NCBI GenBank assembly: GCA_016207165.1
Contig: JACQQD010000005.1
Location: 128,001-192,000 of the forward strand
Direction: 5' to 3'
Length of the DNA: 64,000 nt
From: Candidatus Micrarchaeota archaeon
GTDB lineage: Archaea > Micrarchaeota > Micrarchaeia > Norongarragalinales > Norongarragalinaceae
Part shown: positions 2,711 to 63,640 of the stretch, piece after piece
How positions within the stretch are numbered: the stretch's first letter is position 1
Layout: each line of letters begins with the position of its first letter
Program-made: the position numbers and the translations under genes
The notes under the pieces: model-generated
The model's database searches: none
Told to the model about the DNA's origin: nothing
Seen by the model: only the letters and a program-made list of their open reading frames with translations

Positions 2711-3496
2711 TCAGGGGGTTTTGGTTGGGGCCGTAAACTTCTTTTTCTTGCCCGTCAGCTTGACGGCCAGCTGGTAAGCGGATTCGGCAAGGTTTTCCGC
2801 GAGTTCGTGGACCTGGTTTTCCGCGATGCGTTCGTCGTCCAATTCGGTTTGTTCGTCGGAGGGCCCCGTGTAGTAACACATGCAGTGCTTGGGGATGGTC
2901 CAACCCATGTTGGACATGGTAATGGCCATCAGGCCGGCGGTGTTTTGCGCCCCGTCCTCGTGGCCGATGACGACGAATCCGGCGACTTTGTCCTGGATGA
3001 GGTTCACGCCGAACACGCTTTGCATGTTCTCGATGCAGTTCATCCGCTCGATGATTTTCTTGAACAACGCGGAATACATGCCCCACCGGACCGGCGTGGC
3101 CCAAATGACGACGTCGTTCTCCAACAGCGCCCGGTACACGTTTTTCATGGCGTCGTCCTGGCGGGCAATGGAGGTTTTGCAGGGAAAAATGCATTCGGTT
3201 TGTCCCCGCGAATAATACCCAGCACACTCGTAGATGTTCAGTGTTTTGGCGTCAATCAGACTCGTCTCGGCACCCAAGGCGCCCAGCTTATCCATGACTT
3301 CGGAAAGAATTTTCTTGGAGTGCGAGGACTTGCCGCCGTACTCGGGCCGAGACGACGTGGAGATGCCGACGGCTTTGACGTGGTCGGCGGGCGTAAAGTT
3401 GAAGATGGCGTCCATGAGCGAAGGCGACATGATTTTGGAGTTGACGCCCTTGGCTTCCAATGCGTCCAACGTCTGCTGGTGCAAGGGAATCGGCAT
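2711..3496 (-). CDS. Flavodoxin-like NADPH-dependent FMN reductase / iron-sulfur-flavoprotein-like protein
   Basis: STSSR, IYECAG...CIFPC, DDAM, ATPVRWG motifs. Confidence 0.75.
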   Translation of the reverse strand: MPIPLHQQTLDALEAKGVNSKIMSPSLMDAIFNFTPADHVKAVGISTSSRPEYGGKSSHSKKILSEVMDKLGALGAETSLIDAKTLNIYECAGYYSRGQTECIFPCKTSIARQDDAMKNVYRALLENDVVIWATPVRWGMYSALFKKIIERMNCIENMQSVFGVNLIQDKVAGFVVIGHEDGAQNTAGLMAITMSNMGWTIPKHCMCYYTGPSDEQTELDDERIAENQVHELAENLAESAYQLAVKLTGKKKKFTAPTKTP

Positions 3497-8918: not shown

Positions 8919-10133
8919 ATGGCTCAACGCGCAATCCGTGAAATCGACGCCAAAAACATTTTGGTCCACGCCGGCGTGGCGAAATGGCACGGCGTCTTGG
9001 TGGACGGGCAAACGGACTGGAAGACGCTTTCCAAAGACCACCCGTGGCTGTTGAAGGAAAAGCTGGTGGTCAAGCCCGACCAATGCTTTGGCCAACGAGG
9101 CAAGCACGGCTTGGTTTTGTTGAACGCCGATTTGAAGGGCGTCGAGCAATTCGTGCGGAAAAACATGAACCGGGTCGTTGAATTAAACGGCGTGAAAGGC
9201 CCCTTGACGCACTTCTTGATCGAGCCGTTTGTCCCGCATCAAGCCGAGTACTACGCCGCCATCCAGACCGAGAAAGACCACGACGTGGTTTTTTTCTCCT
9301 TGAAAGGCGGCGTGGACGTGGAGGAAAACTGGGACCGCATCCAACCATTCAAAGTCGGAGTCCTTGACGACTTGGATTCGGTGTCCTTTGGCTTGCCCAA
9401 GATGCCGGAGCGCGACGCGGTCCACGCGTTTCTCAAGAAACTCTACCGCGTCTTTGCCGAGAACGACTTTTCGTTTTTGGAGTTGAACCCTTTTTGCATG
9501 GTGGACGGAAAGCCGGTGCTGCTGGATGCCGTGGCGCGGCTGGACGACACGGCGGCCTTCAAAGGCAAGTGGAACGTCGAGTTCCCGGCGCCTTTTGGCC
9601 GGACGTTGTCCAAGGAGGAAGCCTACATCAAGTCGTTGGACGAGAAAACCGGTGCGTCATTGAAGCTGACCGTCTTGAACCCGAAGGGAAAAATCTGGAC
9701 GCTGGTCGCCGGCGGCGGAGCGTCCGTGGTGTACGCCGACACCATCGTCGACTTGGGCTTCCAAAAAGAGCTGGCCAACTACGGAGAGTATTCCGGCAAT
9801 CCCAACGACGAAGAAACCTACCTTTACACCAAAACCGTGCTGGAATTGTTGGTCAAAGGAAACGGGCAGATTCTTTTGATTGGCGGCGGCATCGCCAACT
9901 TCACCGACGTGGCCAAGACCTTCAAAGGCATCATCCAGGCGCTGAGCGAATTTGCGCCGGCGCTCAAGAAAAAAGGCGTGAAAATATACGTTCGCCGCGG
10001 GGGTCCCAACTACCAGCAAGGCTTGGAACACATGCGGCAACTGGGCGAGAAAACGGGTTTGTCCATCCAAGTCTTTGGCCCGGAAACGCATATGACGAAG
10101 ATCGTTCCCATGGCGCTTGAGGAGCTGAAATGA
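8919..10133 (+). CDS. aclB: ATP citrate lyase, ATP-grasp/citrate-binding subunit
   Basis: LVVKPDQ, VAGGGASVVYADT, NYGEYSG, GGGIANFT, RRGGPNYQ. Confidence 0.93.
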   Translation: MAQRAIREIDAKNILVHAGVAKWHGVLVDGQTDWKTLSKDHPWLLKEKLVVKPDQCFGQRGKHGLVLLNADLKGVEQFVRKNMNRVVELNGVKGPLTHFLIEPFVPHQAEYYAAIQTEKDHDVVFFSLKGGVDVEENWDRIQPFKVGVLDDLDSVSFGLPKMPERDAVHAFLKKLYRVFAENDFSFLELNPFCMVDGKPVLLDAVARLDDTAAFKGKWNVEFPAPFGRTLSKEEAYIKSLDEKTGASLKLTVLNPKGKIWTLVAGGGASVVYADTIVDLGFQKELANYGEYSGNPNDEETYLYTKTVLELLVKGNGQILLIGGGIANFTDVAKTFKGIIQALSEFAPALKKKGVKIYVRRGGPNYQQGLEHMRQLGEKTGLSIQVFGPETHMTKIVPMALEELK

Positions 10134-10257
10134 ATGCGTTTACATGAGTTTAGGGAAAGGGGCGAGGCGGAGCAAGCGCCAGGGGAAAACCGTAGGTTTG
10201 CCCCGGGGCTTGCATGCACGAAGATCGTTCCCATGGCGCTTGAGGAGCTGAAGTGAA
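10095..10257. repeat. Hairpin element copy 2, flanked by a 40-bp direct repeat of the aclB end / aclA start (10095-10134 and 10218-10257, 1 mismatch)
   Basis: acgaagatcgttcccatggcgcttgaggagctgaa(a/g)tgaa occurs twice; core gaggcggagcaagcgccaggggaaaaccgtaggtttgccccggggcttgcatgc. Confidence 0.9.
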
Positions 10258-35989: not shown

Positions 35990-36757
35990 TCACCAAAGCG
36001 GTAGCGCGTCACGTGTTTCCCGGACTTTCTTTAACTCAATGTCGGCGTAGCCGATGCCCTCGGATTTTCCGTCCAACTCCACCAATGCCGTGCCCCACGG
36101 GTCAATGACGGCCGAGAATCCCGCCATCGCCATGTCGTCTGTTCCAACTCGGTCGCATCCAACGGCAAAGCACTGGTTTTCAATTGCCCTTGCCCGAAGT
36201 AGGGCCCTCCAGTGCTCGGCCCGCGGCTTTCCCCACGCCGTCGGGTAAAAAAGAATTTCCGCGCCCTTTTCCGCCAAGTCCCGCGCTTGGTTGGGGTACC
36301 GCAAGTCAAAGCATATCTGCAAGCCGAATCGGCCGTACTTGGTCCGGATCACGTCCGCCCCGTCGCCCTTCAAGAACACGTCGTTTTCATCCACGGGCTT
36401 TCCGGGAAACAACTGGTTCTTGCGGTACTTTCCTGGAACCCGCCCGTTTTCGTCGACCACGTACGCGGAGTTATAGATGCCTTCCGGGGTTTTCTCGGGC
36501 AGTCCCGCCACAATGACTACGTCCAAGGCTTTCGCGGTCTCCTGCAAGGCGTTCAGGGGTTCGTCGGACACCTTGGACTTTAGATCCCGCAAATAGTACC
36601 CGGTGGAGAAAAGTTCCGGCAAACACGCCACGTGGGCCCCGTTTTCCGCGGCTTGCTGGACTCTTTTCAAGCCCTTTTCCACGTTCTTGGCGACTTCGGC
36701 AACGCAATGCATTTGGATGACGGCGACTTTGAAGTTTACTTGACCCACGTCAGCCAC
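35990..36757 (-). CDS. Carbon-nitrogen hydrolase (nitrilase/omega-amidase family)
   Basis: LPELF, YRK, ICFDLRYP, ARAIENQ. Confidence 0.9.
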   Translation of the reverse strand: MADVGQVNFKVAVIQMHCVAEVAKNVEKGLKRVQQAAENGAHVACLPELFSTGYYLRDLKSKVSDEPLNALQETAKALDVVIVAGLPEKTPEGIYNSAYVVDENGRVPGKYRKNQLFPGKPVDENDVFLKGDGADVIRTKYGRFGLQICFDLRYPNQARDLAEKGAEILFYPTAWGKPRAEHWRALLRARAIENQCFAVGCDRVGTDDMAMAGFSAVIDPWGTALVELDGKSEGIGYADIELKKVRETRDALPLW

Positions 36758-37653
36758 GACTCGTACTTCTTGGTTTTGCCGCGCACCGCGTCGGCGTACG
36801 CGGACTGGATTTTTCCGGTGACGGGCCCGCGTTTCCCGGAGCCGATGTTTCGCCCGTCAATTTCGCGGACTCCCACGACTTCCGCGGCCGTTCCCGTGAA
36901 GAACACTTCTTCCGCGCCATACAGTTGGTCGCGCGTCACGTGTTCTTCCCGGACTTCAAATCCCAAGTCCCGGGCCACCGTGATGACGGATTCGCGCGTG
37001 ATGCCTTCTAGAATGGTTTCCTTGGGCGGCGTGTACACGATTTGGTTTTGGACTAAAAAAATGTTTTCCCCGGATCCCTCCGATACGCGGCCCAACGCAT
37101 CCAGCATGATGGCTTCCTCGCATCCGGCGTCCTCGGCTTCCTGCTTGGCCAAAATCGAGTTGACGTAGTTGCCCGCGATTTTCGCCTTGGTCATGACGGA
37201 GTTTTGGTGCGGGCGAATGAACGACGAAACTTTGGCTTTCACTCCCTTTTTCACGCTTTCCTGACCCAAGTAGTCCTTCCACGCCCACACAGCGACAATC
37301 ACGTGCACCGGCGTTTTTCGGTGAGTCAAGTTGAATCCGCCTTCGCCCCCGAAAATCAGCGGTCTGACGTAACACTCCTTCAATTCGTTGTCCTTGACCG
37401 TTTCAAGCACCGCGCCGCACATTTGCTTGACGGAGTACGGCATGTTCATGCCGAAAATGCGGATGGATTGGTCAAACCGCTGCATGTGGTCTTCCAAGCG
37501 GAAAACCGCGGACCCGTTCGGGGTGTCGTAGCACCGGACGCCTTCAAAAACAGCGGAACCGTAGTGCAATCCTTGGACCAAGACGTGCGTGGTCGCCTTT
37601 CCCCATTCAACGAGTTTCCCGTCCATCCAAATGCTCTTGGTTTTCTCAGGCAT
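36736..37653 (-). CDS. ilvE: Branched-chain amino acid aminotransferase
   Basis: LHYG..VFEG, KIAGNY, EGSGEN, LEGITR, GTAAE. Confidence 0.95.
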   Translation of the reverse strand: MPEKTKSIWMDGKLVEWGKATTHVLVQGLHYGSAVFEGVRCYDTPNGSAVFRLEDHMQRFDQSIRIFGMNMPYSVKQMCGAVLETVKDNELKECYVRPLIFGGEGGFNLTHRKTPVHVIVAVWAWKDYLGQESVKKGVKAKVSSFIRPHQNSVMTKAKIAGNYVNSILAKQEAEDAGCEEAIMLDALGRVSEGSGENIFLVQNQIVYTPPKETILEGITRESVITVARDLGFEVREEHVTRDQLYGAEEVFFTGTAAEVVGVREIDGRNIGSGKRGPVTGKIQSAYADAVRGKTKKYESWLTWVK

Positions 37654-37659
37654 ACCGCT

Positions 37660-39342
37660 TTACTCCATCATTGCGCCAAAACACGCTTCGGTGGCGTGTT
37701 TGGCGTACTTGGACAGGATGCCGGACGCATAAAGCGGTTGGGGTGCCGTCCATTTTTTTTTCCGCGCCCCAAGAATGCTCTCCTCCACGTGCAGGTCGAG
37801 GGTTTTGGCTTTCAAGTCCAGCGTGATTTCGTCTCCGTCCACCACCAACGCAATGGATCCCCCGTTTTGCGCTTCTGGACAGACGTGGCATACCCCCATG
37901 CGCGTTCCGCCGGAAAAGCGTCCATCGGTGACCACCAACACTTTTTCATGCAGGCCCCGGCCCGCCAAGGCGGCCGTCACGGACAATTGTTCCCGCATGC
38001 CGGGCCCGCCGCGGGGGCCCTCGTACCTCGTAACCATGACGTCGCCTTCCTTGACTTTTCCGTCCATGACGGCTTTCATGGCTTGCTCCTCTTTTTCAAA
38101 CACGCGCGCCGGGCCCGTGAAGGTTTCATGCGGCCACGAACCGATCTTGAACACGGCGCCCAAGGGCGCCAAGTTACCGTAGACCACCCGGAAGTGCCCC
38201 CTGGGTTTGATGGGCTCGTCCAAGGGCCGGATGACTTCCTGGCCGTGCGTTAACTTGGGCGCGCGTTCCAGGTTTTCTTCCAGCGTCTTTCCCGTCACGG
38301 TCAACGCGTCTTTGTGAAGCCATTCTGCTTCCAACATCAACTTCATTACCGCTTGAACGCCCCCGACGCGGTGCAAGTCCGCCATGACGAACCGTCCCGA
38401 CGGCTTGAGGTCCGCCAACGTCGGCGTCCTTTCGCGGATGCGCTCGAAATCCGACAACGACAAGTTCACGCCCGCGCGCTTTGCAATGGCCGGCAAATGC
38501 AGGAATGCGTTGGTGGACCCGGCCAACACCGTCATCACCGCAATCGCGTTTTCAAACGCCTTTTTCGTCAAGATGTCCTTTGGGCGGATGCCTTGCTCCA
38601 AAAGCCGGGTGACGGCCACGGCGGATTCGTACGCCTCGACTTTCTTTCGCGGATCCACCGCCGGCGTGGACGCGCTTCCGGGCAGACTCATGCCCAACGC
38701 TTCGGTGCAGGACGCCATGGTGTTGGCCGTGTACATGCCGCCGCACGCCCCCGCACTCGGACACGCCTCGCACTCCATTTCCACCAGTTCGCCTTCCCTG
38801 ATTTTTCCGAGGGCCACTTGCCCCACGCCTTCAAACATGGACACGATGTCAACGGGTTTTCCCTTGTGGTGACCGGGTTCGATGGTGCCGCCGTACAAAT
38901 AGACGGCCGGCATGTTCAGCGTCGCCATGGCCATGAGCATGCCGGGCGTCGTCTTGTCGCACCCGCCGATGCCGACGAAACAATCCGCCCCAACGCTTTT
39001 GGCGGAGACTTCCGCCGAATCCGCGATCACGTCGCGGCTGGGAAGCGAGAACTTCATGACTTCGTTTCCCATCGCCGTGCCGTCGGTGACCATGGCCGTG
39101 CGCGCGCGGTGCACCACCCAGCCTTTGTCCGCGAAGGCTTTCGCCGCGGACTCCGCCAACTCCCCCAGATGCATGTTGCACGTGGTTGACGCGTTGTGCG
39201 CGTCCACGACGATGCCAAACGGTTTTGCCAGCTGATCGCCGCTGAACCCGGCTCCCCGCATCATGGCTCGGCCCGGCGCCCGCTCTAAGCCCTCGGTTAA
39301 TTTCGCGCTTTCGTGTTTCAACGCCAACGCCATCGTTTTCAC
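37660..39342 (-). CDS. ilvD: Dihydroxy-acid dehydratase
   Basis: CNMH, SRDVIAD, GCDKT, CGGMYTANTM, TDGRFSG. Confidence 0.95.
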   Translation of the reverse strand: MKTMALALKHESAKLTEGLERAPGRAMMRGAGFSGDQLAKPFGIVVDAHNASTTCNMHLGELAESAAKAFADKGWVVHRARTAMVTDGTAMGNEVMKFSLPSRDVIADSAEVSAKSVGADCFVGIGGCDKTTPGMLMAMATLNMPAVYLYGGTIEPGHHKGKPVDIVSMFEGVGQVALGKIREGELVEMECEACPSAGACGGMYTANTMASCTEALGMSLPGSASTPAVDPRKKVEAYESAVAVTRLLEQGIRPKDILTKKAFENAIAVMTVLAGSTNAFLHLPAIAKRAGVNLSLSDFERIRERTPTLADLKPSGRFVMADLHRVGGVQAVMKLMLEAEWLHKDALTVTGKTLEENLERAPKLTHGQEVIRPLDEPIKPRGHFRVVYGNLAPLGAVFKIGSWPHETFTGPARVFEKEEQAMKAVMDGKVKEGDVMVTRYEGPRGGPGMREQLSVTAALAGRGLHEKVLVVTDGRFSGGTRMGVCHVCPEAQNGGSIALVVDGDEITLDLKAKTLDLHVEESILGARKKKWTAPQPLYASGILSKYAKHATEACFGAMME

Positions 39343-40346
39343 CGCACCATGTTCCGCCGGATGGTGGACCCGACGATTTCAATGGGGTGCTTTTGGCCTT
39401 CTTCCTTTAAGGCGTTGAACTTCGTCATGCCGGCGCGGTACTCCGCCACCCACTCTTTCGCGAATTCGCCGTTCTCGATGGCATCCAGTAAGTCGTTCAT
39501 GGCTTGCCTGGTTTGGGGGGTGACCAAGGCCTTGCCGCGCGTGCGGCCGCCGTAGCGAGCCGTCTCGGACACCCGCTCCCACATGTTCTCAATGCCTCCC
39601 TCCTGGATGAGGTCCACGATGAGTTTGAGTTCGTGCAACACTTCAAAGTACGCCATTTCAGGAGGATAGCCTCTGGCCACCAACGTGTCAAAGCCGGCCT
39701 TGATCAACTCGGTTGTGCCGCCGCAAAGCACCGCCTGTTCGCCGAACAAGTCGGAATGCGTTTCCTGGTCAAAAAAGCATTCAAACGCGCCGGCACGGGT
39801 TAACTTCATGGCTTTCGCGAGCGTCAACGCTTTTTGCAACGCGTGGCCGGACGCGTCCTGCGCCACGGAGACCAGGCACGGAATCGGCGAGGTGGCGGGG
39901 TTCTTAAAATCCGTTAAGTGCAGAAACGCTTGGCGGACTTTGGCGCCTGGCGCCTTGGGGGCCACCATGATGACATCCACTCCGGGAGGCGGTTGAATTA
40001 GTTTGTACGTGACGGCAAAGCCGTGGGAAAAGTACAGCGTCTTTCCTTCCCTCAAATTGGGTTTTACGTGTTGCGCGTAAATTTGGGGGTGCGTCATGTC
40101 CGGCGTCAGCATGCAAATCACGTCCCCCCGTTGGCATGCCTCGGCCACCGTCATGACGTTCATGCCGTCTTGCTTGGCTTGATTCCAGCTTTTGCCTTCC
40201 GGCCGCAAGCCCACCACCACGCGATAGCCCGCATCTTTGAAGCACTGGGCCTGAGCAGCGCCTTGAATGCCGTAACCCAAGACGGCGATGGTCTTCGCCT
40301 TGAGCTCCGCGTCATCGGTGATGTCCGCGTCGTAGTAGATCTTCAT
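39339..40346 (-). CDS. ilvC: Ketol-acid reductoisomerase
   Basis: GYGIQG, FSHGF, APKAPG, DLFGEQAVLCGG, YFEVLHE. Confidence 0.95.
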   Translation of the reverse strand: MKIYYDADITDDAELKAKTIAVLGYGIQGAAQAQCFKDAGYRVVVGLRPEGKSWNQAKQDGMNVMTVAEACQRGDVICMLTPDMTHPQIYAQHVKPNLREGKTLYFSHGFAVTYKLIQPPPGVDVIMVAPKAPGAKVRQAFLHLTDFKNPATSPIPCLVSVAQDASGHALQKALTLAKAMKLTRAGAFECFFDQETHSDLFGEQAVLCGGTTELIKAGFDTLVARGYPPEMAYFEVLHELKLIVDLIQEGGIENMWERVSETARYGGRTRGKALVTPQTRQAMNDLLDAIENGEFAKEWVAEYRAGMTKFNALKEEGQKHPIEIVGSTIRRNMVR

Positions 40347-40365
40347 TTCAAATCCCTCGTTTTCG

Positions 40366-40614
40366 TCATGGAACCAAGTCCAACAGTTTCTCGATTTGCC
40401 GCTCGATGTGTTCGCGCATGCGCTCGTCGGCCTCGAACGACACCTGCACTTCCGTCAACCCATTGGGCCGGCCGTTGAAGTAAAACTGCGTCAAGTACAG
40501 CCCCCTCCGCGAGAAAATGCCGGTGATGCGCTGGAGCACTCCGTGGTTGTTCTGTACGTGGAAGACCAAGGTATGCATCCTCCTGGATTCCAGTTGAACG
40601 GTTTGCATTCTCAT
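40366..40614 (-). CDS. ilvH: Acetolactate synthase small subunit (single ACT domain)
   Basis: NNHGVLQRITGIFSRRG...QIEKL; between ilvB and ilvC. Confidence 0.82.
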   Translation of the reverse strand: MRMQTVQLESRRMHTLVFHVQNNHGVLQRITGIFSRRGLYLTQFYFNGRPNGLTEVQVSFEADERMREHIERQIEKLLDLVP

Positions 40615-40619
40615 GGCCT

Positions 40620-42335
40620 CTATCTCACCCCAAAATAGTTTCTTTCCACGGTCGGACACGATTGCCCCAGCGCCATCTCCGTGTTGCTTCCAAGTGGAGG
40701 CACCAGAGGCATGCCCGCGTCGGAGGAATCCGTGATCACGTCCAGCAAAAACAATTCCTCGCTTCGGGCCGCCTCCTTGATGGCGTCCCCCAATTCGGAC
40801 GGCCGCGTCACGCGCAACGCCCTGCCTCCAAACGATTCCGTGAGCTTGACCCAGTCCGGCACGTCGCCGAGTTTGGAAGCAATGTACCGGCCGTCATAGA
40901 ACAGCTTCTGCCACTGCTTGACAATCGCGTACCAGCCGTTGTTCAAGTTGCACACGCTCACCGGCAACTTTTCCGTGACGGCCGTCGCCATTTCCTGGCA
41001 CACCATCACGAGGCTGCCTTCGCTGCCCACGTCGATTACGGGCTGTTCGGGCTTGGCGGCCTTGGCTCCAATGGCCGCCGGCAAGCCAAACCCCATGGTG
41101 CCCGCTCCCGCGCTGGTGATAAAGTGGCGGGGTTTCCGGGATTTGAAAAAGTGCGTGGCGTACATCTGGTGGTGGCCCACTTCCGTGCACACGATCGCAT
41201 TTTCGGGTAAATGCCGGTTAAGCTCATGGATGACGCGCTCGGCGCGAATGGGCACTTCGTCGCGCGCGATGTCGCAAGAACACTGGCGGTCCAGTTCCTT
41301 TACTTTCTCCCGCCACGCCTTGCTTCGGTCCGAGCGCTGGGCGGCCAAAACGTGGCGCAACAACTCCTTCAAACCCGGTTTGGCGTCCGCGGCAATGGCC
41401 AAAAACGCGTCGACGTTCTTGTTGAATTCCGACGGGTCGATGTCCACGTGAATGACTTTTGCATGGGGAGCAAACGACTCGATGCGGCCGGTGATGCGAT
41501 CGGAAAACCGCGTGCCTACGGCCAGCAATACGTCGCAGTTGGCAATGGCGTGGTTGGTCACCTGCCTTCCGTGCATGCCCAGTTGTCCCAAGCAAAGCGG
41601 GTGGTCGCCGGGAATCACCCCCTTGGCGGTGATGGTCGTGGCGGCAAAACACATGAGCGCTTCAGCCAATGCCGTGAACTCCGCGCCCGCGTTGGCAATG
41701 GTCACGCCGCCGCCGGCCAACATCATGGGCCGCTCCGCCTCCAATAGCATCAACGCGGCTTGGCGGATTTTGTCCTGGTTGGGTTCGGATGGCACGTAGT
41801 AATTTAACGCCAGTTCCCGGTCACCCCATTCCGTGACGGGTGCCGTCAGCGCGTCTTTCGTCATTTCAATGGCTACGGGCCCCGGCCTTCCGGTGTTGGC
41901 GATGCGGTACGCGCTTTTCACCACCGATGGAAACTGGCTGGCTTGCATCACTTTGAAGCTGTGCTTGGTCAAAGGCAACGTCATGGAAAACACGTCGGTT
42001 TCCTGGAACGCGTCTTTCCCCAGCAATTGCGACGGCACCTGGCCCATCAAGGCGATGATGTTCGTGGAATCCATGTACGCGTCGGCAATGCCGGTCACCA
42101 AGTTGGTGGCTCCCGGCCCGCTGGTGCCGATGCAGACGCCCGTTTGGCCGGATGCCCGCGCAAAGCCTTGGGCGGCGTGGACCGCCCCCTGTTCGTGGCG
42201 GGTAAACACGTGCCGCACGTCGGACTGCTGCGAAAGCGCGTCGTACAACGGCAAAACGGCTCCGCCGGGAATCCCAAAAAGGGTCTTCTGGCCCTGAGCC
42301 CGCATGGATTCAATGAGTGCCTGGGACCCGTTCAT
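40620..42335 (-). CDS. ilvB: Acetolactate synthase large subunit
   Basis: FGIPGG, RHEQ, TSGPGATN, DAFQE, GTMGFG. Confidence 0.95.
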   Translation of the reverse strand: MNGSQALIESMRAQGQKTLFGIPGGAVLPLYDALSQQSDVRHVFTRHEQGAVHAAQGFARASGQTGVCIGTSGPGATNLVTGIADAYMDSTNIIALMGQVPSQLLGKDAFQETDVFSMTLPLTKHSFKVMQASQFPSVVKSAYRIANTGRPGPVAIEMTKDALTAPVTEWGDRELALNYYVPSEPNQDKIRQAALMLLEAERPMMLAGGGVTIANAGAEFTALAEALMCFAATTITAKGVIPGDHPLCLGQLGMHGRQVTNHAIANCDVLLAVGTRFSDRITGRIESFAPHAKVIHVDIDPSEFNKNVDAFLAIAADAKPGLKELLRHVLAAQRSDRSKAWREKVKELDRQCSCDIARDEVPIRAERVIHELNRHLPENAIVCTEVGHHQMYATHFFKSRKPRHFITSAGAGTMGFGLPAAIGAKAAKPEQPVIDVGSEGSLVMVCQEMATAVTEKLPVSVCNLNNGWYAIVKQWQKLFYDGRYIASKLGDVPDWVKLTESFGGRALRVTRPSELGDAIKEAARSEELFLLDVITDSSDAGMPLVPPLGSNTEMALGQSCPTVERNYFGVR

Positions 42336-44182
42336 TTGGAAAACCCCTGGTTTTTCGCGTAAAGGATGTTGTATCCGTCTTGGAACGCCTTGATGCTCGC
42401 GACAATGATGTCCGGGCTGGTGCCCATGGTGGTCACCTTGTTTCTTTTTTCGTCCTCCAACGTGATGCGCACGTCCACCGTCGCGTCCGTGTTCTTCGTG
42501 TTGATGGCCACCTTGTAGTCCACCAACTCAAAAGCCAATTCGCCTTCCACCGTCTTTTTCACGGCGTTGATCACGGCATCCACGGGCCCCACGCCCTGCG
42601 CCGTTTTCTCGACTTCTTTTCCGTGCACGCGGACTTTCGCTGTGGCCTCGGGTTTCTGCGTTTTGGCCGTCTTCACCGTGAAGTCCAAAATGTCAAGCGC
42701 ACGATACTCCAGCCGCCCGCGTTGAAGGGCTTCCTCGACAATGAGCTTCAAGTCGTTCTTGGTCAAGTGCTTGCCTTTCTCCAAAAAGCCGTTGACTTCC
42801 CCCACGCAGAACGCCACGTCGGCCTTGGACGGAGACACGTCAAACTCCGACTGGATCAACGCCAGTAACTGGTCCTCAAAAAGAGCCTGGGTGATGAGGG
42901 CTCCCTTGGATTGTGAGCCGTTGTAGTCCGCGCAAATCTTGTAATAGTTGTAGTCCAACAGCTTCTGCACTTCCGCCAAATCCGGTTCCACCGACGGCGG
43001 CGAAGGCAAAACCTTGAGTGCGGATGTGGGGTCCTTAAGTCCCGTACCGGTCATGACCAGAACGACTTCCTCGCTTCCGTCTACCTGCCCCGCGTCCAGC
43101 ATGTTTTTGAGGGTCGCGAGATTCAATGCCGCCGCGGGTTCCACAAACACGGCCTCGGTTTTGGCCAGCCATTTCTGGGCCTCCAAAATTTCATGGTCCG
43201 AAGCCGTGGCCGCGCTTCCCCCCGATTCCCGAAGTGCAGCCAAGAGTTTGTGCGCGTCCGACGGGTTGCCCACGCACACCGCTCCCGCCACCGTCTGCGG
43301 CTTGACCACCGGCTCCAAAGGCTCGTTTTGATTGAACGCCTTAACGATGGGCGCCACGTTTTCAGGCTGGACGGCAACCATCTTCGGTAAGCTATCCGTC
43401 AGACCGAACCACTCGAATTCCTTGAAGCCCTTCCAGATCGCCGATGCATTCGTGCCATTGCCTACGGGCACCATGACTAAATCCGGACTGCGCCAACCCA
43501 GTTGCTCTACGACTTCAAAGGATTGGCTTTTCTGGCCCTCCAAGCGGAACGCGTAGTCGCCCGCCAAAAAAAAGCCGTCCATTCGGCTCAGGCCCGTTGT
43601 CAGTTCCACGGCGTCGTCATACGTTCCGCGGACCTGCACCACGCGCGATCCGAATGCCAGCGTCTGAGCCATCTTGCCCAAAGGCGTTCCTTCCGGCACA
43701 ATGATGTAACAAGGCAGGCCCGCCACCGCCGCGTACGCCGACACGCTGGCGGCCATGTTGCCCGTTGAAGCGCACGTCACCGTCTTGGCCCCCAGTTCCA
43801 AGGCTTTCGTCAACTCCACCAACGACCCCCGGTCCTTGAACCCGCCGGTGGGATTGGAGCCCTCGAACTTGATCCACAGCCGCTTCAACCCCAGTTGTTT
43901 TTCCAGTTTCCTGGCTCGGTACAAAGGCGTTCCGCCTTCGTTCAGGGACACGACGCGCCGCAAATTCGCCAACGGATACAAGTCCAAGTACTTCGTGGCG
44001 GCCATGGGCGCGGTTTTCATCACGTGGACGTTGAAGTGTTCGGCGATGCGCTCGTAATCGTACTTTACTTCCAACGACTGCTGGCACCACGGACACGTGG
44101 TGTAGCTTTGCGTCTCGACGACCGTCTTTTTGCAGGAAGAACACGCCAGCCAGTACTCGTCGCTGAGCGTCTGCGTCTTCAT
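42332..44182 (-). CDS. thrC: Threonine synthase family PLP enzyme fused to a LeuA/CimA-type allosteric domain
   Basis: EGSNPTGGFKDRG, ASTGN, PVGNG, TGTGLKD; C-terminal G-GPVDA...ELVDYKV...DA-VDV...DIIVAS; ATGA overlap with upstream gene. Confidence 0.88.
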   Translation of the reverse strand: MKTQTLSDEYWLACSSCKKTVVETQSYTTCPWCQQSLEVKYDYERIAEHFNVHVMKTAPMAATKYLDLYPLANLRRVVSLNEGGTPLYRARKLEKQLGLKRLWIKFEGSNPTGGFKDRGSLVELTKALELGAKTVTCASTGNMAASVSAYAAVAGLPCYIIVPEGTPLGKMAQTLAFGSRVVQVRGTYDDAVELTTGLSRMDGFFLAGDYAFRLEGQKSQSFEVVEQLGWRSPDLVMVPVGNGTNASAIWKGFKEFEWFGLTDSLPKMVAVQPENVAPIVKAFNQNEPLEPVVKPQTVAGAVCVGNPSDAHKLLAALRESGGSAATASDHEILEAQKWLAKTEAVFVEPAAALNLATLKNMLDAGQVDGSEEVVLVMTGTGLKDPTSALKVLPSPPSVEPDLAEVQKLLDYNYYKICADYNGSQSKGALITQALFEDQLLALIQSEFDVSPSKADVAFCVGEVNGFLEKGKHLTKNDLKLIVEEALQRGRLEYRALDILDFTVKTAKTQKPEATAKVRVHGKEVEKTAQGVGPVDAVINAVKKTVEGELAFELVDYKVAINTKNTDATVDVRITLEDEKRNKVTTMGTSPDIIVASIKAFQDGYNILYAKNQGFSK

Positions 44183-44484
44183 CCGAGTTTCTCCAAGAAT
44201 TCCGATCCCCTCATACCCACTGTAGCGCCTTTTTGTTCGGCTTTCGGTGACAACGCCTTGACTTCCGCTTCCAACATGTCCTTGAAACTGTCTACGCCAG
44301 AAACAATGGCCATGGCATGATTCCATTTTTCCGCCCGCGTCACGTCCACGTACCCGCACGCCAGAATCGTGTCAGGATGCGCTTCGCTGACGATGACCAA
44401 CAATGCCGGGCCTTCCAACTGCATGCGCATGGCCGTAAACGTCTTGCCGCCCAGCGTAAGTTTTTCCGCGGTTACCCGTTCCAT
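44179..44484 (-). CDS. YunC/DUF1805 family protein
   Basis: LACGY, AIVSGV..FKDML, GM-G-E-L motifs. Confidence 0.8.
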   Translation of the reverse strand: MERVTAEKLTLGGKTFTAMRMQLEGPALLVIVSEAHPDTILACGYVDVTRAEKWNHAMAIVSGVDSFKDMLEAEVKALSPKAEQKGATVGMRGSEFLEKLG

Positions 44485-44780
44485 GCGCACCGACTCCCCC
44501 CTAGGGCGAATTGCTTCAACGATTCAAAGGCCTCCAGCCGAGGCTGGAACGCAAAAAAAGCAAACTCAACGTTCGGCGAAACCGTGTTATTGATAGGACA
44601 TGGGGGTCGGTGAGGGGCCAATCCGCAGCAACCGTAACAGGCATGCGCTAGCAAGCAGCAAAGCCTGCGGTTCTGACCACCTCCCTTCAACCACGGACAC
44701 CGACTCCCAAGGTTTGGTTCACCATACAATAATGTAAATTCGTTAAGTGACGAATATTTCACTCCTCTTATTTAAACGTT
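44485..44780 (-). promoter_or_regulatory. Long structured 5' leader of the thrC-ilv operon, candidate attenuator
   Basis: TTTAAATA box near 44769-44776; GGGAGTCGGTG present twice with a near-complement in between; Leu-rich uORF 44587-44694; T7 tract. Confidence 0.6.
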
Positions 44781-44808
44781 TTGGAATCCCACGTTTTTTT
44801 CGCGAATT

Positions 44809-45546
44809 TTAATCCACGAAAATGACGTTGCAGTTCTCGTCGACTTCCACGAAGTGGTTGGCGGACACGCCGAATTCCGGACACTGGTTTTCCGGCAAAT
44901 CATCCACCGGCTGGCGCGGGTCGTGCGCCACGTCGCACACCCAGTCCTTGAACTGGGGGTTCCATTGGCCTTTGAAGTCGTCGTAGCGCGGCGGTGTTGG
45001 GCCCATGGCGCTCAAGCATGGCCCCTTTGTCAAGTCGTACTCCGCGGTTCCGTAGTTCTGGTAAACGTATTGCGCCGTTTGGCAAAAAGAAACGCACAAG
45101 TCCTGGGCTCTCTGGGAAACCGACGGCAGGTTTTCGGGGCGATAACATTTTCCCACGATGTCTCCCGGTTTGAGGTATGGCACCAGTCCCTCACAACATT
45201 TGCCGTAGTCAAACGGGGCATCGGTGGGCACGGCATCATTGAGGTATCCGCCTTCCTCCGCGCACTTGGCGGCTCTCCCGCATTCTCCCGTGTACGCCTG
45301 GACTGCACCGGCCTGTTTTAAGTGACACGTGCTGGAATAGGTTTTCTTGTCTCTGCCGCAAACCGGTTCATAGATTTCCGGGCACGCGTCAATGGTCGGT
45401 GCAGGGGTTGGAGTCGCTAGAGCCGTTGGGCTGGACGTTGGCGCAGGCGGAATTGAAACGGAGATGCTTGGGGACGGTACGGGACCGGGTTGCGTGACGC
45501 ACCCGAAAAACAGGATGGCCGCAATCAACACGAATACGTGTCTCAT
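44809..45546 (-). CDS. Lipoprotein with Kazal-type domain and further Cys-rich domains
   Basis: Signal peptide ending FFGC, PT linker, CPEIYEPVCGRDKKTYSSTC. Confidence 0.8.
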   Translation of the reverse strand: MRHVFVLIAAILFFGCVTQPGPVPSPSISVSIPPAPTSSPTALATPTPAPTIDACPEIYEPVCGRDKKTYSSTCHLKQAGAVQAYTGECGRAAKCAEEGGYLNDAVPTDAPFDYGKCCEGLVPYLKPGDIVGKCYRPENLPSVSQRAQDLCVSFCQTAQYVYQNYGTAEYDLTKGPCLSAMGPTPPRYDDFKGQWNPQFKDWVCDVAHDPRQPVDDLPENQCPEFGVSANHFVEVDENCNVIFVD

Positions 45547-45587
45547 GGCTAAGACGAAGTCCGGTTGGATTATTATTTCATCCGGTT

Positions 45588-45842
45588 TCATGCCAGAACA
45601 AGGATTTGACCACGGCCAAAGGCGTTCTTGTTGTTGAAGCCTTCAAACCAGATGCCGACCATGTCGCCGGTTCCTGCTTGCGAAACCATTTCGTGTTTTT
45701 TCTCGATGCCGGCCACCTTGTGTTTCACGCCTTCCAATTCCACTTCCTGGCCCACCAAGACTGGGCCCTCTTGGACTTGGCCGACGAACAGGACGCCCCG
45801 ATTCGACACATCAAACGCGCCCTGGACCGTGAACTTCCCCAT
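45588..45842 (-). CDS. Stand-alone EF-Tu domain-II-like beta-barrel protein
   Basis: MGKFTVQGAFDVSNRGVLFVGQVQEG...IEKKHEMVSQAGTGDMVGI; only the distal part of the 292-aa track ORF. Confidence 0.75.
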   Translation of the reverse strand: MGKFTVQGAFDVSNRGVLFVGQVQEGPVLVGQEVELEGVKHKVAGIEKKHEMVSQAGTGDMVGIWFEGFNNKNAFGRGQILVLA

Positions 45843-45905
45843 GTGCCGTGTTACTTCCACGTTCCTTAAATGGGTTTTTATCTGTCCGAACGCTTTTTTC
45901 CTAGT

Positions 45906-46559
45906 ATGTGGGTGGCTGAATTCAAGGTCTGGCACAAAGGCTCGGCGGCGCGGGAAGTCACCAACCAATTTGACGTGACGTTGGAGAGCCACTACCTGAA
46001 CGTCTTCATGGAAAAGGGAACCGAGTACATCACCGGCGTCATGGTGGTGCGCGGAAAAGACGCGGACGCGGCGACGGCGGCTTTCATCGACGGCATCACC
46101 AAGCAAGGCGTGCGGCAAATCAAGCGGGAAGGCAACCAGTTGTTCTACATCGTTCCTTCGGTCAAGCAGTTTCACTCCTCGGTCTTGAACGCCAACGTGT
46201 TCTTCATTAAACCTCAATTCATCCAGGAAGGGTTCGCTTTTTGGACCGTGGCCTCCTTTGAAAAAAAGCACTTGATGGAATTGTACCATTCCATTGGGAG
46301 ACTCCGAAAATCCACGGCCACCATTGAATTGTTGTCGCTCAAACAGCAACCCGCTCCCGTGTTTTCCTCTTCGCACTTGCACCAGCTCACCGAAAAACAG
46401 CGCCAGGCCTTCCAATCCGCGTGCCGGGAAGGCTATTACGCCTGCCCCCGCAAGATTTCCCTTCAAGGACTAGCCGACAAATTGGGACTGGCGTACACCA
46501 CGTTCAAGGACCGTTTGCGTTCCGCCGAGGAGAAGCTGTGGCCCGCCCTGGCGCCGTAG
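45906..46559 (+). CDS. Bacterio-opsin-activator-type (HTH-10) transcriptional regulator, paralog 1
   Basis: MWVAEFKVWH; C-terminal LTEKQ...GYY..PR...LA..LG.....DRLRSAEEK. Confidence 0.85.
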   Translation: MWVAEFKVWHKGSAAREVTNQFDVTLESHYLNVFMEKGTEYITGVMVVRGKDADAATAAFIDGITKQGVRQIKREGNQLFYIVPSVKQFHSSVLNANVFFIKPQFIQEGFAFWTVASFEKKHLMELYHSIGRLRKSTATIELLSLKQQPAPVFSSSHLHQLTEKQRQAFQSACREGYYACPRKISLQGLADKLGLAYTTFKDRLRSAEEKLWPALAP

Positions 46560-46609
46560 CCGCCAAGTAGCGGAAAAAGCTTTAAGCCCTCCATTGCCCC
46601 CATCATGCC

Positions 46610-48094
46610 ATGGTAACATTCCCGAAGGATTTGGAAATCGCCAAAAAACTTCCATGGGCTCCGTACGCGGGAAGAAATTTGTCGTACTATTTCACGTACA
46701 TGCATTTGCGCGACACGTACGGCACGTTTTATGAACAACTGTTGGGCGTGCGCTTTGCCGCGCTTTTTGTCACGGCGGAAGGTTCCAAATGGCAGATGTA
46801 CCGCTCGCCGAAGGAATCCGAGCGACTCGAAAAACACGTGTACGCCGCTTCGGAGGACCCCGCCTACGTCCAGCGCGTCTTGGACCACACGCAAAAAACG
46901 TACGACGCGTTGGAGAACACCTGCCATCAGTACTTGAACCTGGACTTTACCGCCATGTCCAACGGTGAACTGGCAAAGCGGCTTGACGCCTTCCGTGACG
47001 TATACTTGAACGCCGTCGCCAGCATCTCCTGTTCCATCATTTTTGCCTCCGCCTTGTCCCAACGCATCGGCAAAGACGTTCCGGAGAACGATTTGCTCAA
47101 GATGGCCCTTCCATTGAAAAAGACCATTCCGCTTGAAGAGGAACTGGCTTTTTGGCAATTGGTGGCAACACTCCAAATACAAGACGCGTTTCCCATCGCG
47201 TCCCTGGAAACACTTTCTCCGAGCACCCGCGCGTTGGTCCAAAAACACTTCGACGCGTACTTGTGGCTGGAAGCGTACGAGAACGACCCGATTTGGCGCA
47301 TGCAGGACTTCGTTTCGCGGTTGAACGACGCCGCCAACCAAGACGCATCCGCCAAACGCAGCCACCTTGAACGCCGCCACGACGAGCAAGACCAGGAAAT
47401 CGAGGCGCTCCGGAAAAAACACGGCGTGGACGCCCTCCCACTCAACCAGTTCCGCCAAGCCATGTACTACCGCATCCTGGGCGAAAGCCTGGTGGGCCTG
47501 GCCAACCACGCCACGCAGAAACTGTTTGCCGCCATTGCCAAGAAACTGTTTTTGCCGTTGAACCAAATCAAGTGGTTCTCCGACGAGGAACTCACCTCCG
47601 CGCTTCGCGGCCACCTGGACCTGGACGTGCTGTCCGGCCGGCTTTCTCAACGCCAGCAAATCTACCTCATTGCCTTGGGCGAGAAAAACGTGCACGCCTT
47701 TGAAGGCCGCCGCGACGTCAAATCCATTCTGGACCAGTTCGACGTGGAGGAACCCGAACTTGAACCAGTCACGGAAATCCGCGGCGTTTCAGCTTACCCT
47801 GGAAAAGTCCAAGGCATCGCCCGCGTCGTGCATGACGTGAGCGAACTGGAAAAAGTAAAGCAAGGCGACATCCTCGTCACCCTGAACACCACGCCTTCGT
47901 TTGTGTTGGCCATGAAGCGTTCTGCCGCTATCGTCACCGACGAAGGTGGCATCACGTGTCACGCCGCCATCGTTTCGCGGGAACTGGGCATCCCCTGCAT
48001 CATTGGCACCAAAGCCGGCACGCGCCTGATCCGCGACGGCGCTAAAATCGAAGTGGACGCCGCGTCGGGCCTCGTTCGTCACTTGGACGATTAG
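46610..48094 (+). CDS. Helical domain + PEP-utilising phospho-His swivel domain protein, paralog 1
   Basis: C-terminal TDEGGITCHAAIVSRELGIPCIIGT; no ATP-grasp or TIM barrel. Confidence 0.85.
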   Translation: MVTFPKDLEIAKKLPWAPYAGRNLSYYFTYMHLRDTYGTFYEQLLGVRFAALFVTAEGSKWQMYRSPKESERLEKHVYAASEDPAYVQRVLDHTQKTYDALENTCHQYLNLDFTAMSNGELAKRLDAFRDVYLNAVASISCSIIFASALSQRIGKDVPENDLLKMALPLKKTIPLEEELAFWQLVATLQIQDAFPIASLETLSPSTRALVQKHFDAYLWLEAYENDPIWRMQDFVSRLNDAANQDASAKRSHLERRHDEQDQEIEALRKKHGVDALPLNQFRQAMYYRILGESLVGLANHATQKLFAAIAKKLFLPLNQIKWFSDEELTSALRGHLDLDVLSGRLSQRQQIYLIALGEKNVHAFEGRRDVKSILDQFDVEEPELEPVTEIRGVSAYPGKVQGIARVVHDVSELEKVKQGDILVTLNTTPSFVLAMKRSAAIVTDEGGITCHAAIVSRELGIPCIIGTKAGTRLIRDGAKIEVDAASGLVRHLDD

Positions 48095-63531: not shown

Positions 63532-63640
63532 GCCAGGGTGGCGGAGCGGTTATCGCGCCGGTCTTGAAGGCCCTACGTAATCAAAGGCCCAGAAAACCGG
63601 TGCCCTCACGGGCGCAGGAGTTCGAATCTCCTCCCTGGCG
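63532..63640 (+). tRNA. tRNA-Ser(UGA) with 26-nt intron at position 37/38 (63569-63594)
   Basis: Acceptor GCCAGGG/CCCTGGC-G, anticodon stem CCGGT/ACCGG with CT-TGA-A, long variable arm, GTTCGAATC T-loop, relaxed bulge-helix-bulge. Confidence 0.93.

Follow-up and report, generated by a model that had tools for sequence, protein, structure and literature searches.

Do Archaea, like bacteria, control the genes of amino-acid synthesis through the translation of leader peptides? The question is raised by a locus on the minus strand of the window (the whole stretch of 64,000 nucleotides from a Candidatus Micrarchaeota genome analysed here), where the segment 44485-44785 precedes an operon for branched-chain amino acids. 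Leader-peptide attenuation is taught as a bacterial device, which needs coupled transcription and translation together with hairpin terminators, and the bacterial leu, ilvBN and ilvGMEDA operons are ribosome-mediated attenuators of this type. An earlier reading of the DNA (the original prediction) had proposed such an attenuator here, in which a ribosome stalled at the Leu and Ile codons of a short upstream open reading frame (uORF) would free the ribosome-binding site of the operon. The archaeal setting is borne out by the ribosomal RNAs (rRNAs) of the host genome (1.27 Mb, from groundwater), whose small- and large-subunit (LSU) sequences are best matched by archaeal Rfam models, and the gene content downstream, together with the Pfam matches, shows that the branched-chain amino-acid operon is real. 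The segment is read here as a promoter and a leader of about 260 nt that would work as a ribosome-sensing leader-peptide attenuator, with a probability of roughly 45%; within this reading, the choice between sequestration of the Shine-Dalgarno (SD) sequence and termination at a U7 tract, as well as the polarity of the switch, is left open. In relatives of the same archaeal class, short open reading frames (ORFs) were found that terminate in Ile/Leu/Val runs before ilvB and in Leu-only runs before leuA, and these class-wide uORFs are a stronger and more readily testable discovery than the element of the window.

Promoter, leader and sequence elements

The elements of the leader are listed below in the direction of the operon.

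44766-44785, minus strand: promoter with transcription factor B recognition element (BRE) and TATA box, TCCAAAACGTTTAAATAAGA, TTTAAA at 44776-44771; 15.8 bits with a position weight matrix (PWM)
44687-44725, minus strand: uORF-A, opening at the first ATG (44725) past the predicted transcription start; 12 codons plus UGA (44689-44687)
44601-44709, minus strand: long irregular hairpin, one among several competing folds
44698-44708, minus strand: repeat copy 1, GGGAGUCGGUG, a copy of the translation-initiation region (TIR) of the operon, 3 nt before the GUG of uORF-B
44587-44694, minus strand: uORF-B, 35 codons, GUG start at 44694, UAA stop at 44589-44587
44620-44661, minus strand: Leu/Ile cluster, codons 12-25 of uORF-B, with seven Leu and one Ile and no Val
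44602-44612, minus strand: anti-TIR element, CACCGACCCCC, codons 28-31 of uORF-B, reverse complement of the repeat
44573-44586, minus strand: post-stop segment CACGG..CGCCGA, with the copy-1 region or 44546-44528 as alternative partners in helices of minimum free energy (MFE)
44553-44559, minus strand: U7 tract read from the sequence, a candidate archaeal termination signal
44530-44547, minus strand: small GC hairpin obtained by folding (CCAGCC UCG GCUGG / GCCUC..GAGGC)
44488-44498, minus strand: repeat copy 2, GGGAGTCGGTG, SD region of the first operon gene, which encodes a DUF1805 protein, with GGAG 9 nt before the ATG

All the sequence features that the original prediction had described are present on the minus strand where it had placed them, namely the identical 11-mer at 44488-44498 and 44698-44708, each time 3 nt before a start codon, the 35-residue ORF opening with GTG and its clustered seven Leu and one Ile, the word at 44602-44612 complementary to both copies save for one mismatch (there called an anti-ribosome-binding site), and the U7 tract and the small hairpin, at 44559-44553 and about 44547-44530, respectively.

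Genome-wide background values were obtained with a crude codon-based gene finder written for the analysis, and promoters were scored with a PWM trained on the upstream regions of this genome's own genes. With this matrix, the promoter at 44785-44766 ranks 38th among all positions of the genome on both strands, and no other minus-strand site of at least 6 bits occurs in 44300-45000, an interval that includes the region between the U7 tract and the ATG of the operon. Because this is the only promoter-like site found, the operon is most likely transcribed from about 44745 with a 5' untranslated region of about 260 nt, the predicted start at about 44750-44741 being inferred from the peak of TATA-to-start distances in this genome, at -35 to -26. 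Both uORFs are located between this sole promoter-like site and the first gene, so that the predicted transcription start falls upstream of the Leu-rich ORF, as the original prediction needed it to do.

In this regard, the original prediction had also cautioned that some G-U pairs favour the plus strand. An antisense RNA spanning 44595-44715 does indeed fold well (-51.1 kcal/mol, z -3.55, with no shuffle as stable), four of its G.U pairs become A.C mismatches on the minus strand, and a T7 run is found on the plus strand at 44794-44800. This part of the caution stands, but a promoter for such an RNA is missing, since within 44300-44700 no plus-strand site left of the hairpin reaches 6 bits and the sole plus-strand hits (44760-44762) mirror the same TATA box and face away from the hairpin. 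Moreover, the energy gap between the strands is small, as the minus strand laid on the mirrored plus fold reaches -48.2 kcal/mol. The single strong promoter of the minus strand therefore favours that strand, and an antisense RNA is a highly improbable account of the locus.

A leader of about 260 nt is uncommon in this genome. TATA-like words peak at -35 to -26 from the start codons, from which it follows that the mRNAs are mostly leaderless or short-leadered, and for 121 of 299 strong intergenic promoter sites the next start is no more than 60 nt away, with only a few sites per 20-nt bin at distances of 100-400 nt. The 3' end of the 16S rRNA reads ...GATCACCTCCT, and SD words are moderately enriched genome-wide, GGAG with a peak spacing of 8-12 nt and GGTG with one of 7-8 nt; the GGAG of the repeat, at 9 nt from the ATG, is thus well placed, and its GGTG, at 3 nt, is atypical. 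Runs of six or more T are concentrated right after stop codons (53 in the first 20 nt versus 2-10 per 20-nt bin inside genes), and they seem to behave as terminators that mark gene ends in this genome. The same observation, with a strong promoter and the U7 tract about 190 nt downstream of it, would also suit an independent small RNA or small-protein transcript reaching from the 44785 promoter to the U7 tract, the operon being then expressed by read-through or from an unrecognised promoter; in keeping with it, three of the 11 relatives' leaders described below show a second strong promoter-like site after the run-containing uORF and its hairpin. This transcript is nonetheless improbable: no site of at least 6 bits occurs between the U7 tract and the ATG, the ORFs have neither a family nor gene-like codon usage, and such a transcript would not account for the copied initiation region.

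Copy 2 of the repeat is followed by a CGC spacer and the ATG at 44484, and copy 1 by TCC and the GTG at 44694, so that a 3-nt spacer and an RTGG match come after both. In the 1.27 Mb of the genome the 11-mer occurs only twice, both times in this leader, and a reversed control pattern occurs once. The repeat alone is unremarkable: when exact 11-mers were taken from the 25 nt preceding each start, 17 of 1189 gene starts had a second copy no more than 400 nt upstream, as did 376 of 40,000 random anchors. Direct 11-mer pairs (within 400 nt) that enclose a reverse complement with at most one mismatch amount to 9 of 1544 and collapse to four loci, the other three being two that were judged A-rich low-complexity words and one repeat-family insertion. 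In the minus-strand RNA the anti-TIR element can pair with either copy through 7 bp, one A.C mismatch and then 3-4 bp.

Regarding the two short ORFs, uORF-A (coding log-odds +1.0, with I/L/V, that is, Ile, Leu or Val, at 4 of its 12 codons) traverses repeat copy 1 and ends within GUGGUUGA, a word in which its stop and the start region of uORF-B overlap; this arrangement would be typical of termination-reinitiation coupling. The Leu residues of uORF-B are at codons 12, 13, 14, 19, 20, 22 and 23, and Ile is at codon 25; no Pfam family matches this ORF. Two larger ORFs of the leader region (96 residues on the minus strand and 97 on the plus strand) were rejected as genes, having no family and poor codon scores.

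Short ORFs before ilvB and leuA in the class

A search for IlvB in 401 genomes of the class yielded 18 ortholog loci with 43-52% identity, of which 16 include the gene start. In the 420 nt upstream of ilvB, short ORFs ending in Ile/Leu/Val runs were found, the last 12 residues before the stop being, for instance, SLLLISLILVVL, VLLLVSIVLVLA, VSVVLLLLVVVL, LLVAVVVVLVLA and AVSLLVSVVVLR. The finding was quantified with a statistic independent of the start codon, in which I/L/V residues are counted over the 12 codons that precede each stop, comparing the 450-nt sense leader with the background of both strands at the same loci: at least eight I/L/V precede 8 of 187 leader stops versus 7 of 2526 background stops (Fisher p 1.9e-6). 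These eight stops correspond to 8 of the 16 loci (L072-L076, L079, L080 and L081, the last two from a single genus), and four further loci reach seven, one of which (L084) may be coding sequence. At the remaining loci (L071, L083, L086 and L087) no I/L/V run was found.

The architecture was surveyed in the 11 ilvB loci with a run of at least seven, L084 being excluded. Scored with the matrix of the window's genome, a promoter-like site of 8.5-15.4 bits lies 13-79 nt before the uORF start in these loci, and a hairpin begins 0-4 nt past the uORF stop, with a ΔG of -14 to -26 kcal/mol over 60 nt and a z of -1.9 to -4.1 in 10 of the 11. Several of these hairpins are followed by a U-run. Compact leaders such as L072 and L074 leave 45-48 nt between the uORF stop and ilvB. 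One relative's contig bears the end of an archaeal LSU rRNA, and no Rfam family was found in the 11 leaders. As an additional observation, both genomes of the single genus mentioned above (L080 and L081) carry, about 60 nt before ilvB and between the hairpin and the gene, a second small ORF, basic and 16 codons long, with its own GAGGUG; it ends 3 nt before the ilvB start, and the stretch is near-identical in the two genomes.

A domain search for HMGL-like proteins gave 30 leuA-type loci, 4 of which (L136, L140, L144 and L155) have Leu-only runs before a stop. Three of these loci come from genomes of a single family of the order, with the runs LQGLLLLLLLRK, NGLLSGLLLLLA and KKGLLLGLLLLR, and the fourth (LLLLLLPLALGL) from another family. 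The first three share a conserved stretch past the stop (CCUGCGG ... GGUG ... CUUUUGGGG) with a predicted hairpin and some compensatory change. Within the run windows, Leu relates to Ile plus Val as 41:49 before ilvB and as 31:0 before leuA (Fisher p 4e-9), a comparison of 10 ilvB loci (L080 was dropped as identical to L081) and 4 leuA loci, all selected for having a run, which accordingly speaks to the specificity of the runs and not to their presence. A phylum-level search for IlvB added no lineage outside the class. Altogether, these ORFs suggest that archaea of this class may sense amino-acid supply by leader peptides in the bacterial style.

How does the leader of the window compare? It shares with its relatives the pathway, an orthologous ilvB (at the identity given above) and the order of a promoter, a short ORF and then a structure, and the hairpin within 0-4 nt of the uORF stop is also found in it, at a gap of 1 nt for uORF-A and 3 nt for uORF-B. 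The first is an 80-nt structure of -35.0 kcal/mol (z -2.4) and the second a 60-nt structure of -20.6 kcal/mol (z -2.5), values that vary with the length folded. It differs from them in that its operon is headed by DUF1805 and a ThrC fusion, whereas those of the relatives are headed by ilvB, and in that it has no sequence similarity to their leaders. On this comparison, the uORF of the window would be an atypical version of the leader ORFs of its relatives. The relatives' leaders likely regulate branched-chain genes by sensing the ribosome, which lends the concept strong indirect support and raises the prior for the window. A broader proposal, that ribosome-mediated attenuation is native in this groundwater class of small genomes, with amino-acid-specific leader peptides that would read tRNA charging, and that the window holds a further-evolved switch with two coupled uORFs and three parts, in which the real ribosome-binding site is contested by its exact mimic and by an anti-site within the Leu-rich uORF, is put forward tentatively, as a possibility that we hold to be rather doubtful.

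Alternative pairings and the weighing of the proposed attenuator

Leaders of this kind depend on competing complementary words, and here these are copy 1, the anti-site, the post-stop segment, the small hairpin and copy 2. The long hairpin at 44709-44601 that the original prediction had drawn is indeed the MFE structure (-48.3 kcal/mol) when the 121-nt piece is folded by itself, but it does not dominate in the full leader, where the unconstrained MFE of -100.3 kcal/mol pairs 44703-44677 with 44603-44573 in another register. When enforced, the pairing of copy 1 with the anti-site and that of the anti-site with copy 2 are isoenergetic (-94.8 and -94.9 kcal/mol, respectively), and 1000 Boltzmann samples of the free leader contain the first in 2 and the second in 1. 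Masking the start region of uORF-B, as a mimic of a ribosome, brought the anti-site to copy 2 in 999 of 1000 samples, so that in the model translation of the uORF can drive sequestration of the operon SD. Modelling reproduces this half of the stalling switch originally proposed. The other half, release of the ribosome-binding site by a stalled ribosome, could not be reproduced, as no modelled state frees the SD: with a ribosome on the Leu codons, on the Ile codons or on the stop, at least four of the five bases of the copy-2 GGGAG are unpaired in at most 8 of 1000 samples.

The mechanism that these elements would allow can be described as follows. Transcription would start about 30 nt past the TATA box, and a ribosome loading at the 5'-proximal uORF-A would open the structure that hides repeat copy 1, after which re-initiation might take place at the overlapping GUG of the Leu-rich uORF-B. 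The position of the ribosome on uORF-B could then select among the mutually exclusive pairings of copy 1, anti-TIR, post-stop segment, small hairpin and copy 2. A shortage of charged tRNA-Leu would hold the ribosome at the final Leu/Ile codons, where it would cover the anti-TIR element; a ribosome running through would instead free it to pair with the SD of the operon, and/or the U7 tract would terminate transcription. Translation of the uORFs, the polarity of the switch and its output, whether translational or termination at the U7 tract, are what we infer, and the anatomy, the lone strong promoter, the unusual Leu cluster, the exact mimicry of the initiation region and the clearer leader ORFs of the relatives are what was observed.

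A number of results weigh against an attenuator in the window, and they concern the RNA structure, the ORF and its relatives. As for the structure, the long hairpin is no better than shuffled sequences (z -1.3, 16 of 200 shuffles as stable) and neither is the whole 341-nt stretch of the minus strand (z -1.1); the helix between copy 1 and the anti-site is nearly missing from the ensemble, where other folds dominate; the GGGAG of the operon is locally paired in at least 99% of samples for every modelled ribosome position, because a local helix holds it; and no significant hairpin was obtained by folding directly before the U7 tract. As for uORF-B, its coding log-odds of -1.6 denote a codon usage that is not gene-like. 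Its Leu cluster is unusual by the count of Leu, at least 7 Leu in 14 residues being present in 6 of 1373 background intergenic ORFs of 25-60 residues (0.4%), a measure picked post hoc with the ORF already seen; at least 8 I/L/V in 14 residues are found in 34 of the 1373, and by the measure of at least 5 I/L/V in 10 residues (253 of 1373, 18%) uORF-B is ordinary. Regarding the relatives, the 12 codons that precede a stop never contain more than 4 I/L/V in the leader of the window versus their 7-11, and the cluster of uORF-B is internal, ten codons from the stop, unlike their terminal runs. In their own ilvB leaders, a second promoter-like site before the gene is strong in 3 of the 11 loci, weak in 2 and absent from 6. 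Moreover, no credible His-rich uORF was found before hisG in 30 loci of the class (a hit at -761 in L123 was set aside, as it is thought to be part of a long ORF), and therefore either leader peptides are no general habit in the class or hisG does not head its operon.

To these must be added the searches for the leader elsewhere. The sole ortholog of the DUF1805 gene among 41 relatives is in a genome of the same genus (G002, 60% identity), and a search of 26 genomes of the family found no match in another one, G001, or in 23 others. The locus in G002 also counts against the reading, for it lacks the long leader, the ORF for a Kazal-type protein that precedes it in the window and the downstream ilv genes. 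The expectation that homologous leaders would conserve the uORF and the anti-ribosome-binding site thus met a sole ortholog that has no leader, so that neither the Leu codons nor the pairing could be shown to be conserved. Two metagenome scans, one with the DUF1805 protein and one with a two-sequence alignment, likewise brought no relative. Comparison of the leader with 88 loci of relatives revealed no similarity, and BLAST against the 41 relatives gave short matches at chance level. One of them, of 29 nt (90% identity, E 3.9e-4), links 44505-44538 with 205330-205358 of contig 1 in G001 (L004), at the 3' end of an opposite-strand carbon-nitrogen hydrolase gene and beside a gene resembling agmatine deiminase, as judged by eye; it is no orthologous leader, and it may be a relic or a product of chance. 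The genome's own leuA (contig 9) has no run-containing uORF, and candidate I/L/V ORFs near a second ilvC (contig 12) and near an ilvB-like gene (contig 1) were discarded, on inspection by eye, as a gene start and an unannotated gene.

The empty place in G002 would also agree with another history, in which the roughly 200 nt between the 11-mers (44697-44499) are a recent functionless insertion or duplication, the repeat arose when a target site or junction was duplicated, the Leu-rich ORF is a side effect of a stem rich in CUG and GCU, and the long leader is tolerated. Between the matching divergent gene for a helix-turn-helix (HTH) regulator and DUF1805, G002 has about 95 nt where the window has 1385 nt including the Kazal ORF, and excising the segment between the repeats leaves an ordinary leader of about 50 nt with its SD. 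A 39-nt junction duplication around an inserted element of 84 nt at 10095-10256 of the window (plus strand) offers a precedent, the minus-strand folds are, as said, no better than shuffles, and the ilv block itself looks acquired, with a second ilvC on contig 12. Unlike the 84-nt element, however, the 199-nt segment is single-copy in the genome, for which reason a miniature inverted-repeat transposable element or other repeat element was rejected, and no terminal inverted repeats were seen. A target duplication would also leave unexplained the internal reverse complement, an arrangement present at only four loci genome-wide, as well as the matching 3-nt spacer, the RTGG after both copies and the Leu cluster. 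An insertion of this sort is considered unlikely: the features of the locus, from its lone strong promoter and long leader to the exactly copied initiation region before a Leu-rich ORF, the anti-site inside that ORF and the U7 tract, fit a uORF-dependent switch better than debris.

The locus at 10095-10256 (plus strand) deserves a description of its own. There, the final 39 nt of a gene and, with them, the SD and start of the following one (a GTGA overlap, in copy 2) are duplicated around the GC-rich insert of 84 nt, four more copies of which are found in the genome (contig 6 near 20990, contig 9 near 100024 and 97922, contig 1 near 164725). The element looks like a member of a small repeat family that would insert with long target duplications.

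A structured leader that senses a protein, a metabolite or temperature would make use of the same words in another way. Expression platforms classically combine an SD mimic with an anti-SD, and here the exact mimic, the anti-SD and the SD would form such a platform, with the uORFs as incidental passengers. This resemblance, the two isoenergetic pairings, a leader unusually long for the genome and a uORF-B start that is buried in all predicted folds would all agree with it. Against it, Rfam gave no match in 43500-45500 at E values up to 1, so that the match to a known housekeeping RNA that would have counted against the original prediction did not appear; at the gathering score a single tRNA was found in the whole window, and ARAGORN found no tRNA. 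No homologues that could show a conserved aptamer came from the BLAST of 41 relatives or from the 88 loci, the stability of the structure is at chance level, and the same pathway genes carry amino-acid-run uORFs in the relatives. A sensor of this class is therefore regarded as distinctly unlikely, and the ribosome-sensing attenuator continues to be the preferred reading of the leader.

Known systems, operon and genome

The bacterial leu and ilv attenuators resemble the window in having a short leader ORF with clustered codons for products of the pathway, alternative pairings and a U-run before the first gene, and the relatives add to it the Leu-only runs before leuA and the mixed I/L/V runs before ilvB. 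The differences are an archaeal host with a TATA/BRE promoter, a U7 tract that lacks a strong hairpin directly before it, a Leu cluster that lies inside the long hairpin, an exact copy of the SD region that precedes the uORF, and the lack of any Rfam leader family that matches the window.

Two more specific parallels are found in bacteria. Passages of two reports on the Corynebacterium ilvBNC leader and the ilvB-II uORF describe a three-hairpin transcription attenuator (PMC11857589, PMC10272879), and the leader ORF is reported to be translated without a ribosome-binding site (Morbach et al. 2000, cited in PMC13158618). To judge from these reports, the likeness lies in an I/L/V leader ORF before ilvB and in uORFs that, in the relatives, start 13-79 nt past the TATA box; the differences are the bacterial host and, in the window, a uORF-B with an SD-like word and a start some 50 nt from the 5' end of the transcript. 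On the other hand, the mycobacterial polycysteine ORFs, leaderless and short, act in translational regulation through SD availability, according to part of a preprint (bioRxiv 10.1101/834739). A 5'-most ORF with a run of a single residue that controls the downstream gene is the very logic of the original prediction, but the mycobacterial case, as this part presents it, senses cysteine, is bacterial and has been tested by experiment, whereas the leader of the window is known from sequence and from modelling that shows no SD release.

No published case of leader-peptide attenuation in Archaea was found in the full-text literature, subscription journals being outside the scope of the search. If the reading were true, these would be the first leader-peptide attenuators described in Archaea, and the relatives provide testable candidates, with run-containing uORFs before ilvB (in 8 to 12 of 16 loci), Leu-only runs before leuA and hairpins abutting the stop codons. 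They would address how translation is coupled to gene control in archaea and how the RNA polymerase or a termination factor reads a ribosome-gated hairpin or U-run, as well as how very small genomes regulate the few biosynthetic operons that they have kept or acquired. The element of the window would add to them a variant based on mimicry of the ribosome-binding site.

The operon that follows the leader is composed of the genes given next.

44179-44484, minus strand: first operon gene, DUF1805 protein (Pfam PF08827, E 1.5e-17)
36736-44185, minus strand: remaining operon, a ThrC-like pyridoxal phosphate (PLP) enzyme fused to LeuA_dimer, then ilvB, ilvN, ilvC, ilvD and ilvE

The N-terminus of the DUF1805 protein, counted from the ATG at 44484, is kept in the alignment with the G002 ortholog (60% identity). 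The next gene, at 44185-42332, overlaps it by a few bases, and the ilvN of the operon is a short gene. The protein encoded at 42332-44185 (minus strand) combines a Cys-rich N-terminal stretch, a PLP enzyme resembling threonine synthase and a C-terminal LeuA allosteric domain (LeuA_dimer). A scan of one genome per species recovered no other fused ThrC-LeuA_dimer protein; the 30 relatives obtained match the ThrC part only (residues 2-427), at no more than 46% identity, or 49% over one partial match.

The whole ilv block of the window looks horizontally acquired, because its IlvC is closer to copies from another family of the order (57-63% identity) than to those of both same-genus genomes or to the second copy in its own genome (contig 12, 68489-69448), each of which is only 43-44% identical. 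The stretch is contained in four DNA sequencing runs of a single groundwater study, one of which may be its source, and no RNA run was listed as containing it; no differences were found between the contigs of these runs inside 44485-44808, and population variation therefore could not be read.

Upstream of the leader, and absent from the syntenic site of G002, an ORF for a Kazal-type protease inhibitor with a hydrophobic N-terminus occupies 44809-45591 (minus strand), between the HTH-regulator gene and the leader. The minus-strand ORFs at 45588-46466 and 46463-47695 were rejected as genes, for they have no family and are shadows of plus-strand genes. The plus-strand genes are at 45870-46559 (an HTH-type regulator, judged by eye) and at 46610-48094 (with a domain of phosphoenolpyruvate-utilising enzymes), and both are conserved in G002. 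Finally, two RNA genes of this genome carry inserts: a tRNA at 63532-63640 of the window (plus strand), with an insert of about 38 nt, is found by Rfam and missed by ARAGORN, and the 23S rRNA gene on contig 8 (1-4500, L161) contains a group I intron at 3158-3431 of that locus.

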